Shown here in pieces: positions 21,001-27,000 of a stretch of 64,000 bases of DNA. The stretch is from NCBI GenBank assembly GCA_963678065.2, contig CAXXVZ010000003.1:2335562-2399561 (forward strand). The letters run 5' to 3'. Every line of letters begins with the position of its first letter. Position 1 is the stretch's first letter. The DNA comes from Treponemataceae bacterium (GTDB lineage Bacteria; Spirochaetota; Spirochaetia; Treponematales; Rectinemataceae). Made by a program: the position numbers.

Positions 21001-24000
21001 GCAGAAGACCTGAGCTCTCCGGCACAATGACGAATTTGGAGACAAAAATGACACTCAAGGATATCGGGTACAACGAAATTATTGAAAAATATGCCCTCGA
21101 AAAAAATACGGACGGATTTCAAGTGGGTCGAATCGTCTCGGAACAAAAAGAAAGATAAAAAAGGGCAATTGCCCAAGCAAGATTGAGGAATGAAGAAGCA
21201 TCGAGGGCCTCAGAGACAGGCCGACGATCCTGATCTTTCGTGCCAGGGAGTCTGTTCGCGAGCCAGTCGGCGACAACACGTGATGCGGCATTTCCACTCC
21301 GCTTGCCGGTTGAAATACCGTTAGAGTATTTTCCAGTGTCATTCAGGAACCGAACATAGACAATGGATCTACGACGATACAACGAAAAAACCGACGACAT
21401 GAAACCCGCCTCTGTGCTCGAAGTGTCTTATTACACTTCATACTACAGTAATACAAGGTTTACACTCGCCGGTTTTCCGGGAGAAATGTAATTCATTCTC
21501 TTAAAAGACTTTATTCTTGAGCCGCACAAGATTCGAACTTGTGACCCACGCCTTAAAAGAACATATTTTATCACATCACGGTGTATCTTTATGTACTATG
21601 TTAACTACTAATTCTTTATCTGTCAATGCAAATCGTTTCACAACGTGTCAAGCAGTACTACCCTATATAGCGATTTATCTCATAGTTTTATCTCATACTA
21701 CTTATTCCGTATTTGTGTGTGACATTTCTGCCAGGAGCTGCTTTACTCGTTCGATTGGGAGAGGAGCTGAGCCTTCAAAATGGTTGTTGACGTTCAGATA
21801 GACTTGCTTACCATGGTTCGAAAGCTCGTTGATCATGACAGCGATAGAAGGCAGTTGCGATTTGGGCTCGACAATCCGGTTCCATTCTTGCTGTGTGGCT
21901 TTCTCGATTTCCATCCGATCACCCCCGAGGAGCCGGATGACAACAAGACTGGATAACAGGTGACCGAACTTCCTGTATAAATCGACGATGTGTGGCATGT
22001 ACTGTTTTTCTGAAAAGACCATCAAGTGGACTTGCCCGGGTTTCGTGGAGGCTTGGTTAAGCCACTCTCCTGAGCATCGCTGCGGGTGGCCTGAAGCCGT
22101 TTCGTGAGTGGATCCGAAGCCGATTGTAATACACCTCGATGTACTCGAACACTGCGGTCCTGACCTTCTTCCGGGTGGTTTTTCCGTCAAGCTCGGGGAG
22201 TTCCCTTTTCAGCGTCTTGAAAAAGGACTCCGCGCAGGTGTTGTCCCCAGCAGTTCCCCTTGCGGCTCATGCTCCTTACGAGTATCGGCATCGTCCCTAG
22301 GGAAGCCTCTCGAAAAGCATTGCAGCATTATTGGATGCCGGGGTCGGAATGGAACAACAGCGGGCCTTTGGGATTCTTCCTGTACACAGCCATCGCGAAG
22401 GCATCGATGACAATGGCCGCAGTCATGTCGGTCCTCATGGACCAGCCCACGACCATCCGTCAAACAGGTCTATGCCCACGCACAGGTAGAGCCAGCCATC
22501 GGTGGTCGGGATATACATTATGTCCAACACCCACACCGTAGTGGGCTCGGCGACGTCAAGGTATCATATCAAATGACTACATAGTATTTTCTACAGATAT
22601 ACTACGCACCCGTAAATAAATATTTTCATCGTTGACTTTTGATGAATACTCTGCAAATCATCTTATACGGATCAAGATAAATGCTGTTCGGCGGACGCTC
22701 TGCGCAGGGAAGGAAACGAATAAATGAGAGATAAACGATTTATAGCAAATCATATGGGCGGTCCATTAAGTTTAGAAAGACATAGGTCATTGATTCATTG
22801 GGCTGTTGACTGTGTAAAACATGGAATTGAAATAGCAAATGAAAAGGATATTGACGAAAGAGCATTAAATGCTCTGGAAATTGCTGAAAAATGGGAAAAA
22901 GGAAATGCTACTGTTGGAGAAGCAAGAGAAGCAGCATTTGCAGCACATGATGCCGCAAGAGAATGTGAAGATAAGATTAAACAAGCATTAATGCGTGCCT
23001 GTGGTCATGCGGTAGCAACAGCTCATATGGCTGATCACTCATTGCAAGCCAGAAAATATGTATTAAAAGCAGTAAAGCTAACGAATAGGGAAATAGCAAA
23101 AGAAATGGAATGGCAAATACAAAGAGCAGATGTAAATATTAAAGAATTACTTATAGGAAATGGAAATGAATTATGCTAAAGAAGAAGACGCCGAACAATC
23201 GCTTCAACCGGACAGCGCCTTTTGTCACGGTTTGTGCTACTCGCTTCGCTCGCTTGTGCACAAACCGCGCCAACCCGCTTCGCGGGACAGGCTTGCCGGT
23301 TAAGCCAATGTTGCACTAAACCGCTGTGCCAGCGGTGGAGGATTTGCTTTCATTCCTACCTTTTGCGAGGTTCGGGCACATTCATAGACCACGGATACTT
23401 CTGGCATCATCACGCCGGAGGTATCCAATGCACTACGAACTCGAACTCGAAGCCATGCGCAAAGCGCTGGTCATCCGCAACTACGCCACCAAGACCATCA
23501 GCACCTATGTCTCCGTCCTCAAGCGGTACCTTGAACAGCTTGACAAGCCGATCGCCTGTGTCACATCGGCCGACATCCAGGAGTGGCAGTATCATCTCGT
23601 CAATGAAGAAAAAGTATCTTGGTCTCTCTTCAACCAGATGGTCTGCGCCCTCAGGTTCTATTTCAAGAACGTGCGCACCTGCGATTTCACGGTCAAACAC
23701 ATTCCGTTCCAGCGCAGACGAAGGCGATTTCCGTCCATACTGTCCAAAGAAGAGGTAGCAGCTCTTCTGGAAACCGCGCGGCTGAATCCCAAGCACTATG
23801 CGATCATCGCCACGCTGTACTCCACCGGCCTGCGCCTTGGCGAATTGGTCAAGCTCCAGATACCCGACATCGACAGTACGATGATGCTCGTGCACGTCCG
23901 GCAAGGCAAAGGTGGCAAGGATCGGCATGTCCAGCTCAGTTCCCACCTCCTCGGGATATTGCGGGCCTATTATCGCTCGTGCCTCGTCAAGCCGAAAACC

Positions 24001-27000
24001 TGGCTCTTCCCGGGTGCCAAGAACGATGGCCCGCTGGATCCGAGTGGTATCCAGAGGATGGTTCCCGCTATCGCACGAAAAGCCGGAATCGAGAAGCATA
24101 TCTCGCCGCACACGCTCCGGCATTGCTTCGCAACCCACCTGCTCGAAGACCACACCGACCTGCGCACCATCCAGTCCATGCTCGGTCACAGCTCCATCCA
24201 GACGACGGAAGTGTACCTGCACGTGGCGACGCATCATCTCCAGAGTGTCCGCAACCCCCTCGACCATCTCCCGGCACCAGGTGTGCACTCCGCGGGAAAG
24301 CCCCGATGAGCGCACTAGGCGACATAGCGCGGCGGGGGATGGCGCTCTCCTGGCTCACCGGTCAGGAACGGAGCGTCCTCTCTCACATAGCCGACTGCAA
24401 GACGGAGCGACTCGGAGGGAATGTTCTTTCGTGCGAGTGCGGGCACCGCGAGGTTCACTACAATTCCTGTCGTGACCGGCATTGCCCGCTCTGCCAGGGT
24501 GCCGCGTGTGCGCGCTGGGTGCGCGCGCGCCTTGGCGAACTCTTACCCTGCGGGTACTTCCATGTGGTCTTCACGGTCCCCCACGAACTGCACTACCTTG
24601 CCCTTTCCAACCGCCACGCATTCTACCGGGCGCTCTTCCTCTCGGTCCACGAAACCCTTAAGGATGTCTGCGCCAATCCCGCCAACCTCGGTGCCCGCGT
24701 GGGCGGCATGTCCATCCTCCACACCTGGAACCAGAAGCTCGCTTTCCACCCGCACATCCATTGTATCGTACCCACAGGAGGTATTTCGTCCGACTTCTCG
24801 CGCTGGATAGCGGGGAACCCCACCTACCTCGTTTCGGTCAAGCGCCTGTCAGCGGTGTTTCGCGGCAAACTCCTGAGCCGTCTTGAGCAGTCCATCGGCA
24901 GACATGACCTGTGCGGCGACGAATCGGCGCTCCGCGATGCGGTGTGCGCTGCCGCTCGCAAGGACTTCGTCGTCTATGCCAAGCCACCCTTCGGTGGTCC
25001 CGGCCAGGTGGTCAAATACTTGGGCCGCTACACGCATCGCGTCGGCATCAGCGAACCCCGCATCGTCTGTGTCACTCAGGAGAGAGTGAGTTTTTCGTGG
25101 ATCGACCGCGCCGCGGGGCATGCGAGACGAGTGATGAGCCTGTCCTGTGACGAGTTCATCCGAAAGTTCACCCTGCACATCCTGCCCAAAGGACTGCGGA
25201 AGATCCGCTATTTCGGCTTCATGGGGAACCGGGACCGGACCGCTTCCCTTGTCCGCGTGCGTGCGCTCATCGCATCCTCGTCCGATTCACTCCCGAACCG
25301 GCCTGAAACCGACGAATTCCCGGCACACGGGAGCGCGATGGAGGCTCCCCGCGTCGAACCGTGCGCCGTTTCCCGCTGCCCGCGATGCGGACTGCCTCTG
25401 AGCATTCACCATCCGATCGGGGTGTCGTCATCGGGGTCGCACTGGCTCACATCGCGGCTTGCGTTCCTGCGGGAAGTCCATGGACCGGAACCGAACAGGG
25501 CGGTGTTTGCCTGAACGAGGGGTGTGACTCCTGAGTCCGAATTTCACCGAACATCCGCCCATTGTGCCTGTATTCCCTTCATCCCCTCACAATTCCCGGC
25601 AGGTAAAAACTGCTCTGAATACGGCATTGCCCATGATCACGCTTACGGATAAAAATCGTACTGCCGTGTACATGCCCGTTAATAAAAAAAATCGTCCCGT
25701 TACGCGCGTCTCCTCTCATTTCCCGCCTTGTAGTACCGAGAAACCCCGGATTGTTCTTCAATTTGATGTGAAGACTTGATACAGTACCCATAGGGGACGA
25801 CGGTTCAGTGCAACACGTTCTATCCTGCAGAATCGAATTCTCGGTGTGCCACCCTCCTTCAGTACATCGAGAGTCGGTTGTCGCGCGATTCCGCAGGATA
25901 GAATGCTAATGTTCGGCGGACGCTCTGCGCAGGGAAGGAAACGAATAAATGAGAGATAAACGATTTATAGCAAATCATATGGGCGGTCCATTAAGTTTAG
26001 AAAGACATAGGTCATTGATTCATTGGGCTGTTGACTGTGTAAAACATGGAATTGAAATAGCAAATGAAAAGGATATTGACGAAAGAGCATTAAATGCTCT
26101 GGAAATTGCTGAAAAATGGGAAAAAGGAAATGCTACTGTTGGAGAAGCAAGAGAAGCAGCATTTGCAGCACATGATGCCGCAAGAGAATGTGAAGATAAG
26201 ATTAAACAAGCATTAATGCGTGCCTGTGGTCATGCGGTAGCAACAGCTCATATGGCTGATCACTCATTGCAAGCCAGAAAATATGTATTAAAAGCAGTAA
26301 AGCTAACGAATAGGGAAATAGCAAAAGAAATGGAATGGCAAATACAAAGAGCAGATGTAAATATTAAAGAATTACTTATAGGAAATGGAAATGAATTATG
26401 TTAAAGAAGAAGACTCCGAACAATCGCTTCAACCGGACAGCGCCTTTTGTCACGGTTTGTGCTACTCGCTTCGCTCGCTTGCGCACAAACCGCGCCAACC
26501 CGCTTCGCGGGACAGGCTTGCCGGTTAAGCAAATGTTAGGATTATTAAAGATTGGTAGGTAAGAGATGAAGTTTCATATTATAGATTCTATTTCTGGTAT
26601 TGACAGAGATTCTGTAAACGAGTGTTTTTTAGTAGTTGATAACTGGGATGATTGGTTTGAATTTTCAACAATGTACCGGCTATATTTTGTAACAATCTCA
26701 AATACAATAAAAGAAATTGGCTTTGTAAAAATTGGCCAATTTTTAATGAAAGAGGGACAGCGTAGACCATTATTAAATAGGGATTTTGAAAATTTAGAAG
26801 ATAACTATTTTTCTGTTGGTCAAGATGAGAAATATTATGAAAACATTAGATCGCTTGATGAGCATTTTAGAATAGAGATATTAAGTATCTTAAATGATTT
26901 TGCATTTAGTAATGAGATGTTTCAAAAAGCACTTGGTGAAAAGGTTACAAGAGTATCGCTACTTAGGTCAGTTTCCGAAAAGACAATAAGTGAACAGTTT

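Follow-up and report, generated by a model that had tools for sequence, protein, structure and literature searches.

The window, the whole stretch of 64,000 nucleotides that was analysed, holds a tyrosine recombinase gene and an IS91-type transposase gene within an array of integron cassettes, raising the question of what kind of mobile unit this gene pair forms and which enzyme placed it there. Our preferred answer, to which we give about an even chance, is an autonomous two-gene element with cassette-like ends: the transposase would produce a single-stranded DNA circle, and the element's own recombinase would insert it at the G/TT of tyrosine-recombinase sites. The array around the copy in the window (copy A) is composed as follows.

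22670..22688, plus strand: attI-like site heading the cassette array, crossover G at 22686
22686..23309, plus strand: cassette copy 1, with an Imm5-like ORF at 22724-23179
23190..23316, plus strand: attC belonging to cassette copy 1, in which GTTGCAC, contributed by the element's start, now serves as R' box
23310..25910, plus strand: element copy A, 2601 nt (C3 2358871-2361471)
25911..26534, plus strand: cassette copy 2, with an ORF at 25949-26404 and attC at 26415-26540

The attI-like site is similar to two others, one on C5 and the attI that lies behind intI at C3:98313; no intI lies beside it. The GC content is 58.6% in copy A versus 31-42% in the adjacent cassettes. Insertion left the attC upstream of the element intact. 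The survey's finding had described a flanking cassette of 640 bp duplicated around the element; the duplication stands, with a length of 624 nt and four differences between the two cassette copies. Contigs from the public runs X1, X2, and X5 place assembly branch points at 22685 and 25913. In X2, an extra contig enters at 23309 from the attI of copy C, and the cassette depth is about twice that of the flanks. At most copy-A-specific positions the contigs of the three runs carry the letters of the other two copies, and those A bases are unseen. No joint of the element's right end to its left end is listed among these contigs, which, being contigs only, provide no evidence of absence.

The genome contains three copies in total, the other two being copy B (C3 854383-851778) and copy C (C3 866928-864323), each of 2606 nt. 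As the survey had reported, they occupy three different att sites and start exactly at the GTT: the common sequence extends from GTT up to the next GTT, and the flanks differ immediately outside. The start at 23310 was thus correct, while the end moves from 25899 to 25910. The copies had been given as 97-99% identical; near-identity holds, with B and C identical at all 2606 of 2606 positions and A and B sharing 2579 identities over 2600 aligned columns, plus 7 gap nucleotides. Copies A and B each come after an attC R' box, as described earlier. Copy C, which had been placed behind a copy of the integron's attI, follows an attI-like site whose last 20 nt are those of that attI but which has 16 mismatches in 51 positions; on this comparison it is a diverged paralogue, and no intI was found beside it. 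Copy B lies further down the same array, and the B/C pair, with C behind an attI, is a recent identical duplicate. Chance placement at att sites is excluded, since the genome contains about 103,000 GTT triplets on both strands versus 41 hits for a permissive attC R'-box pattern, itself an upper bound.

The two genes of the element are arranged as follows.

23428..24309, plus strand: tyrosine recombinase, 293 aa, with R136, K161, H228, R231, H254, and Y263 intact
24306..25514, plus strand: IS91-family HUH/Y2 transposase, 402 aa, its start overlapping the recombinase stop (ATGA)

The survey's assignment of a tyrosine recombinase and an IS91 Y2 transposase to a 2.6-kb element was confirmed: both genes are intact, carry the expected motifs, and are under purifying selection, dN/dS against the relative L003 being about 0.12 in the recombinase and 0.18 in the transposase (rows from L005, with a mis-parsed frame, were excluded). 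The recombinase possesses the R-K-H-R-H-Y catalytic set of integron integrases, and all 40 aligned homologues retain these residues. The IntI-specific insertion with the I2 helix is absent, leaving a 37-residue gap against a spirochaete IntI; the alignment to the best solved match, 2a3v (VchIntIA), is split, and the TIGR02249 score of 205 bits falls below the cut-off of 265. In a quick tree of 61 rows, unrooted and with long-branch warnings, the recombinases of such elements form one group (SH-aLRT 81) on a branch separate from IntI. Judged from these alignments, the recombinase is IntI-related but lacks the IntI insertion. The transposase has the Zn motifs, H150-I-H152, and Y238-x3-Y242, and matches PF04986, PF14319, and NF033538 (361 bits); a sequence search returned no solved relative. 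A 229-codon open frame upstream of the transposase was considered as a fusion, which we do not claim because the frame is not conserved and spans only 127 codons in L003. A scan for promoters and terminators stayed at shuffle level (2 versus 2.2).

By its gene content, the element is a member of the catalogued IS91 subgroup of ISAzo26/ISShvi3 type with an upstream tyrosine recombinase, to which, we presume, ISSod25 also belongs. The survey had met no earlier report; the gene pair was in fact catalogued, and it is the ends, the target rule, and the role of the recombinase that no paper we found defines for this subgroup. One paper describes a member beside an attC. In ISAzo26, as in the element and at locus L175, the recombinase gene lies directly upstream of the Y2 gene on the same strand, and the ISAzo26 copy on NC_006824 shares the end plan of left arm, CCCCATAG motif, inner inverted repeat, and hairpin. 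Compared with ISAzo26 and ISShvi3, the present element adds insertion in forward orientation at attI and at the R' box of attC, an identical recent duplicate, and, in a relative, an insertion in a dif-like site confirmed by its empty allele. The subgroup occurs in 19 of the 401 genomes of the phylum that were searched, and 392 plasmid records have a transposase match; plasmid members are below 60% identical to the element in protein. No DNA matches to the element were obtained in E. coli genomes, and a 4.9-kb circular Sphingomonas record with a relative proved not to be a bare element circle.

The ends of copy A comprise four features.

23310..23336, plus strand: left end, with GTT, a 15-nt arm, and a small palindrome at 23320-23336
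25776..25793, plus strand: conserved CCCATAG motif, oriIS-like, kept family-wide and in gene-less 300-bp minis
25800..25814, plus strand: inner inverted repeat of the left end, terminating in the R''-like box GTGCAAC
25816..25905, plus strand: terminal hairpin, with a stem of 19-20 bp and a variable loop

On the bottom strand, the left end reads GTGC at 23313-23316, which resembles the IS91 terIS cleavage site (GTTC/CTCG type) and is accompanied by a subterminal palindrome; in the published table of targets, GTGC is among the rare variants. The left end also fits a putative IS91 terIS cut after GTT. The CCCATAG motif we take to be comparable to the IS91 oriIS. Gene-less minis of about 300 bp at two sites of genome G1025 keep both ends and CCCATAG. 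Minis in G496 had been considered as moving units; their deletion points differ, and they were treated as decayed copies. Of the first 12 nt of the element, 11 agree with the inner inverted repeat, a value reached by 12 of 10,000 shuffles, and in 26 of 29 distinct family ends the left 15 nt pair with the inner repeat at 11 positions or more. The junction triplet co-varies with the inner repeat (GTT/AAC, ATT/AAT, TTT/AAA, CAG/CTG, and CAA/TTG). The fold of the terminal hairpin, whose stem has one C-A mismatch that becomes G-T on the bottom strand, beats 200 of 200 shuffles on both strands (z of -2.9 bottom and -3.6 top). Stem covariation within the close clade remained at shuffle level (281/500).

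The hairpin had been described as the element's own and as attC-like. Its GTGCAAC R'' box and 18-pair stem were borne out; its geometry is not that of attC. The arms are spaced by 4 nt versus 8 nt, compared with 7 and 7 nt in the 13 attC sites matched by a scan of the cassette arrays, and the extra-helical C present in 13 of 13 of these is missing from the hairpin. Of the view of a selfish element in the form of an integron cassette, the selfishness, cassette form, and att placement are supported, and the notion of a true attC-bearing cassette is not; the missing IntI insertion of the recombinase and the spread of close relatives to non-att sites in genomes in which no IntI was found also count against it. 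The right end is also readable as a simple double-stranded site, with an inverted box 6 nt before GTT, and the non-att targets are double-stranded palindromes. Both observations would suit a recombinase that by itself excises and integrates double-stranded circles, the HUH enzyme serving as a plasmid Rep-like replicator of the circle. This reading leaves unexplained the conserved long hairpin, the bottom-strand bias, and an inner repeat whose pairing with the left end requires folding, and we consider it very improbable. In models of the circle junction, the bottom strand gives the better-folding stem for all 10 variants; the junction of copy A modelled with its real loop folds better on the top strand (-39.9 versus -37.0).

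Relatives equivalent to those of the survey were found and were used to define the targets. The close clade provided 28 rows of left junctions, or 27 after removal of one same-site duplicate, and all 27 start with GTT. In the four genomes with IntI (G000, G454, G496, and G887), 13 of 13 junctions are at attC or attI, and all 13 copies lie forward within arrays; the forward rule likewise holds for the 13 attC-flanked junctions. None of these copies uses the simple sites, of which G000 alone offers 337 (GTTA with a left box). Such a pattern would be explained directly if the element were in practice a cassette that host IntI excises and inserts through the end hairpin, its own genes amplifying it or transferring it between cells. 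Copy C, first behind an attI and identical to B in the same array, agrees with this, as does the cassette duplication around copy A, expected from IntI excision through the element's hairpin. Some attC sites without extra-helical bases recombine efficiently (PMC5027507), and genomic GWT sites are also IntI targets (bioRxiv 2022.09.11.507474). Against movement by IntI stand the non-attC geometry of the hairpin, other routes to the cassette duplication, such as tandem duplication followed by insertion, and relatives present in several copies on three alphaproteobacterial plasmids devoid of IntI (plasmid sequences, not chromosomes). In G535, G735, G1025, and G418, in which no IntI was found, 12 of 14 junctions lie away from attC and attI. 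IntI occurs in 0 of 6 genomes of the genus of G535 (86-97% complete) versus 38 of 68 in the family, and G535 nevertheless has nine left and eight right junctions. Since the element interior is missing from the G535 bin (86% complete), these copies rest on ends of about 50 nt. We regard the IntI reading as improbable.

A precise insertion outside integrons was observed for a sister element. In G526, an empty allele matches both flanks of its dif-like insertion site with a single GTT; the allele forms an 11-6-11 palindrome in which the cut lies between spacer and arm, and the sister element was thus inserted precisely into a dif-like site. GTT is present once in the empty allele and twice in the filled site, which fits a shared core or a 3-nt repeat alike. 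ISAzo26 occupies a similar palindromic site immediately before another recombinase gene. Among non-att targets, a left box is found in 6 of 10, or in 4 of 7 when copies of one repeat are merged, a modest signal from a feature chosen post hoc, compared with backgrounds of 5% in G000 and 12 of 69 (17%) in G535 loci. A clear left box is missing from 3 of 9 G535 targets and from one of two non-attC targets in G1025. The right flank is GTTA in 8 of 8 G535 cases, versus A after GTT in 6% of G000 sites. Rhizobial relatives use GG-ATT sites, mostly non-palindromic. Because GTT is carried by every target and by the element, the crossover cannot be placed inside it. An insertion in groEL of G535 (L303) was rejected as proof of a crossover after GTT, because at this position of groEL a genus-mate carries a short AAC...GTT insert, and the GTT may be target-derived. 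Flank pairings by reading frame in G535 (L258 with L298, L266 with L307) were dropped in the absence of a confirming empty allele, and one-mismatch matches to the end pattern (G533, G436, G544, G524, G550, G442, and others) were put down to chance.

The same junctions bear on whether the transposase could act alone, copying the element out and pasting it in like IS91 and picking folded or palindromic targets, with the recombinase resolving co-integrates or aiding targeting. The left end, with its bottom-strand GTGC and palindrome, is compatible with this, and relatives carry GTTC, GTCC, or GTAC, all four being among the IS91 cleavage or target tetranucleotides. IS91 inserts bottom-strand single-stranded circles unaided. 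Near-identical copies in a distant subfamily differ in the junction triplet, which suits a possible HUH cut. IS91, however, requires a GTTC/CTTG-type tetranucleotide at oriIS, and the 26 rows of right flanks of the element are varied and follow no such rule. The ori-like motif stands about 117 nt in from the element's end, and in attI, attC, and the dif-like allele alike the target is cut where the spacer of the recombinase site meets an arm. Action of the transposase alone seems to us rather unlikely. Close relatives also insert precisely at similar sites in genomes in which no IntI was found, so the element's own recombinase is the likely inserting enzyme.

In the two-enzyme model that we prefer, the HUH enzyme would copy the bottom strand out via the CCCATAG region and the terIS-like left end. 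At the junction of the resulting circle, the left-end arm would meet the inner repeat and fold into an att site with a 4-nt bulge. The recombinase would then carry out a single-strand exchange at the AAC/GTT triplet, with attC, attI, or a simpler palindromic site as partner, and replication would resolve the product, as in CTX phage and integron cassettes. Integron att sites would be the favoured targets wherever an integron exists, and host IntI may also reshuffle the element. The strands would agree, as attC recombines via its bottom strand (PMC5027507) and IS91 circles are of the bottom strand (PMC13181058).

The element can be compared with several known systems. With IS91, IS801, and IS1294 the element shares the Y2 transposase, the terIS-like left end, and the start/stop overlap with an upstream ORF; that ORF is Orf121 in IS91 and the recombinase here, and the att-like structure of about 117 nt past the ori-like motif has no equivalent in IS91. 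Like integron cassettes, it has G/TT boundaries, an R'' complementary to its start, a bottom-strand-biased hairpin, and forward orientation, and copy C stands directly behind an attI as first cassettes do. Unlike them, it has an asymmetric spacer, its own mobility genes, and no extra-helical base, and in contrast to IntI systems it spreads where no IntI was found, with a recombinase devoid of the I2-containing insertion. Other elements have presumably invaded att sites of this genome, namely group IIC-attC introns and IS1111-attC, as labelled from end motifs. Both are known to home to attC sites (PMC9229058, PMC8876359). They split attC internally, the introns usually in reverse, whereas the element enters at the crossover and has a complete attC upstream. 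According to PMC4792948, the IntI insertion domain reads the extra-helical base, and CTX phage combines rolling-circle single-stranded DNA, a folded stem without extra-helical bases, and a recombinase without I2. The likeness to CTX phage applies to the proposed model of the element only; CTX uses host XerCD and targets dif, whereas the element encodes its own recombinase and no phage genes.

The papers that we found demonstrate no role for the recombinase of this widespread IS91 subgroup, and the defined ends, target rule, and empty allele make that role directly testable. Since the upstream attC and the downstream cassette stay usable, the element would be a nearly harmless parasite. More speculatively, and with little likelihood in our estimate, the family may represent a complete, self-encoded system in which an IntI-related recombinase devoid of I2 recombines folded single-stranded DNA, intermediate between Xer/CTX and integrons; the end hairpin would then be a proto-attC and the minis proto-cassettes, and the family would parasitise attI, attC, and dif-like core sites and could seed cassette-like units without an integron. 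If the two-enzyme model holds, the element would be a third kind of integron parasite, one that enters without breaking the site, and would link rolling-circle transposition to att-site recombination. It would also provide a test case for how single-strand recombination emerged ahead of the I2 domain, a question raised in PMC4792948.

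The 5.27-Mb genome G000, which carries the window on its contig C3 and whose close relatives are spirochaetes, contains three copies of a two-gene mobile element, one in the window (copy A) and two elsewhere on C3 (copies B and C).

Genes and end plan of the element
Window 23310-25910: copy A
Within window 23310-25910, upstream gene of the pair: tyrosine recombinase, 293 aa
Within window 23310-25910: IS91-family HUH/Y2 transposase, 402 aa, its start overlapping the recombinase stop by ATGA
Left end: GTT, then a 12-nt arm, then a small palindrome
Right end: CCCATAG motif; inverted repeat of the left end closing in GTGCAAC; 19-20-bp stem with variable loop; 5 nt; the next GTT

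Active-site motifs were intact in both proteins, and dN/dS relative to the relative in locus L003 was ~0.12 for the recombinase and ~0.18 for the transposase. The survey's finding of near-identical copies at att crossovers was borne out as to position: GTT opens each copy, each stops just before another GTT, attC R' boxes directly precede copies A and B, and copy C is the first unit behind an attI-like site whose last 20 nt are shared with the attI behind G000's intI. As to identity, copies B and C do not differ over 2606 nt, and copy A shows 21 substitutions relative to them, plus 7 gap nt. The intI of G000 is oriented towards its own array, an arrangement described for Treponema in PMC3607928.

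In the window array, an attI-like site is followed by a cassette, the element, a second copy of the same cassette and more cassettes. The duplication around copy A is present as surveyed, at 624 nt rather than 640 bp and with 4/624 nt differing. All four differences fall in the last 134 of the 624 nt (window 23176-23306 versus 26401-26531); gene conversion may be behind this, or the 5' part may have collapsed during assembly. Assembly branch points in contigs of the public sequencing runs X1, X2 and X5 occurred at the cassette start and the element right end. Three attI-like sites head arrays with no intI found alongside (window 22670-22688; C3:866928; C5 ~776195). In window 26566-30663, a cassette gene encodes an AAA-ATPase and is accompanied by what is probably its HNH-type partner (29809-30663, without a Pfam match); a DDE transposase (27871-29502) interrupts the two, which look like a defence-type pair. 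An AT-rich ORF of 1093 aa at window 35410-38691 contains three identical 351-nt repeats.

In 26 of the 29 distinct relatives having both parts, at least 11 of the left 15 nt matched the inner repeat; of the three misses, one was a mis-picked motif and one truncated. The junction triplet co-varies across the family in five pair types. The end plan is kept throughout the family. The bottom strand folded better in 10/10 modelled junction variants, but with its real loop the modelled copy A junction favoured the top strand; in the close clade, the element's nearest relatives, the stem is too invariant to reveal covariation. At a distant relative, L157, the left flank resembles its own right end, as in a tandem copy or circle junction.

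In the 13 attC sites that the scan found in G000 cassette arrays (17 rows less 4 isolated matches), the AA and TT edges are 7 nt apart on each arm, and there is an extra C. The element end hairpin has 4 and 8 nt between its arms and no extra base. According to PMC5027507 and PMC4792948, arm geometry and extra-helical bases define attC and are read by the I2 domain of IntI. The end hairpin is therefore not a canonical attC, and the idea that it makes the element a true cassette fails. Nor is the recombinase an IntI: against a spirochaete IntI it shows a 37-residue gap where the IntI-specific insertion sits, its match to 2a3v is split, its score of 205 bits falls short of the TIGR02249 cut-off of 265, and a quick tree places 61 element recombinases in a single group (SH-aLRT 81), separate from the 4 IntI rows. 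VchIntIA and XerA are the best matches to its predicted structure (pLDDT 87).

In the close clade, each of the 27 distinct left junctions (28 rows less one duplicate; 8 genomes) starts with GTT: 13 lie at forward attC, 1 at half an attC that follows an intron-like end, 1 at attI and 12 elsewhere. An attC or attI was present at 13/13 junctions in the four genomes with IntI and at 2/14 in the four in which no IntI turned up, a contrast rather than a test because the genomes are kin and partly incomplete. In G535, 9 left and 8 right junctions lie at contig ends, the element interior being unbinned; a search of this genome for the host-type attC pattern found none, and IntI was found in 0/6 genomes of its genus and 38/68 of the family. 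For one G535 site, G526 holds the empty allele (left 300 nt identical, right 99%, single GTT), in which two palindromic 11-nt arms flank a 6-nt spacer; the insertion point of the element is where spacer and arm meet. This 11-6-11 layout is that of Xer dif sites. Spirochaete attI sites can likewise be read as a 6-nt spacer flanked by palindromic arms. The copy of ISAzo26 on NC_006824 occupies a palindromic site resembling the one in G526, ahead of another recombinase gene. A TAA/TAG left box occurred in 6/10 non-att flanks, or 4/7 once repeat copies were merged, on a background of 5% in G000 but 17% in G535 loci, a weak signal in these flanks. At two sites G1025 carries gene-less minis of ~300 bp that retain the left end, the right end and the CCCATAG motif.

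That a host IntI moves the element seems unlikely. Four observations would suit it: the element lies strictly within arrays in IntI genomes, an identical copy (C, equal to B) stands behind attI, IntI tolerates sites without extra-helical bases (PMC5027507), and it uses genomic GWT sites (bioRxiv 2022.09.11.507474). Against it, the close clade has spread through genomes where no IntI was found.

We consider it an even chance that the element's own recombinase inserts a folded single-stranded circle. The transposase would generate a circular copy of the bottom strand, a step shown for IS91 in PMC13181058; the left end fits a terIS, the IS91-type cleavage end. In the model, once the ends are joined the left arm would base-pair with the inner repeat above the long stem, and the resulting att site would contain a 4-nt bulge. 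At AAC/GTT the recombinase would swap a single strand with an attC, an attI or a site of simpler form. Movement by the transposase alone is unlikely: it would accord with the terIS fit and with variable junction triplets in other subfamilies (distant rhizobial relatives, which occur in several copies on plasmids that lack IntI, have GG-ATT or varying triplets at their junctions), but the target cut does not follow the IS91 tetranucleotide rule. Action of the element's recombinase on double-stranded DNA is very unlikely. We prefer insertion by the element's own recombinase because the target cut matches recombinase sites, because the absent I2 domain matches the absent extra-helical base, and because the close clade has reached genomes in which no IntI turned up; a ground for doubt is that the crossover is not placeable inside GTT.

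Numerous inserts of 20-41 nt, each closing with an inverted box, 5 nt and GTTA, lie inside mobile-element genes of a genus in which no IntI was found.

Loci with short GTTA inserts
G526: L351, L353, L355-L360
G405: L352, L354, L356
G407: L331, L350
G490: L349
G535: L259, L261, L264, L265, L321

Those in G535 are in tandem and serve as element targets, and groEL carries a related 41-nt insert at its 3' end. A related recombinase may account for these inserts, as its footprints or its micro-cassettes. At attC in two genomes (G000 C3:849282-849880; L396 in G1025), an element-type 3' hairpin arm is joined to a fragment that, by its end motifs, we take to be group II intron-like. Other G000 attC sites (C3:115459, 120133, 124702; C2:641929, 643938; C5:773397) are split by ends that are presumably IS1111-like or group IIC intron-like, so that attC parasites of three kinds seem to be present in G000. 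At L276 (G496:C54, reverse strand 1-3070), three decayed element copies with differing deletions alternate with toxin-antitoxin-like cassettes in one array.

NCBI names one member 'IS91-like element ISAzo26', with the recombinase upstream. In Shewanella, Romine et al. (2008) reportedly connected the integrases of ISSod25 with attC sites. The recombinase-bearing IS91 subgroup is listed in ISfinder/TnPedia. Nothing on it was found in the accessible parts of PMC5737581, PMC7923331 and PMC8876359, and our search, covering mostly titles and abstract openings with subscription papers outside its scope, turned up no paper that defines the ends, the targets or the mechanism of this subgroup. The element belongs to this subgroup. 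Of the surveyed selfish mobile element in cassette form, the observation and the cassette-like boundaries stand, while the hairpin and insertion tests remove its status as a cassette and its recombinase's as an IntI. It works like a self-sufficient cassette, yet is not a cassette by these tests, or like a CTX-like integrating circle.
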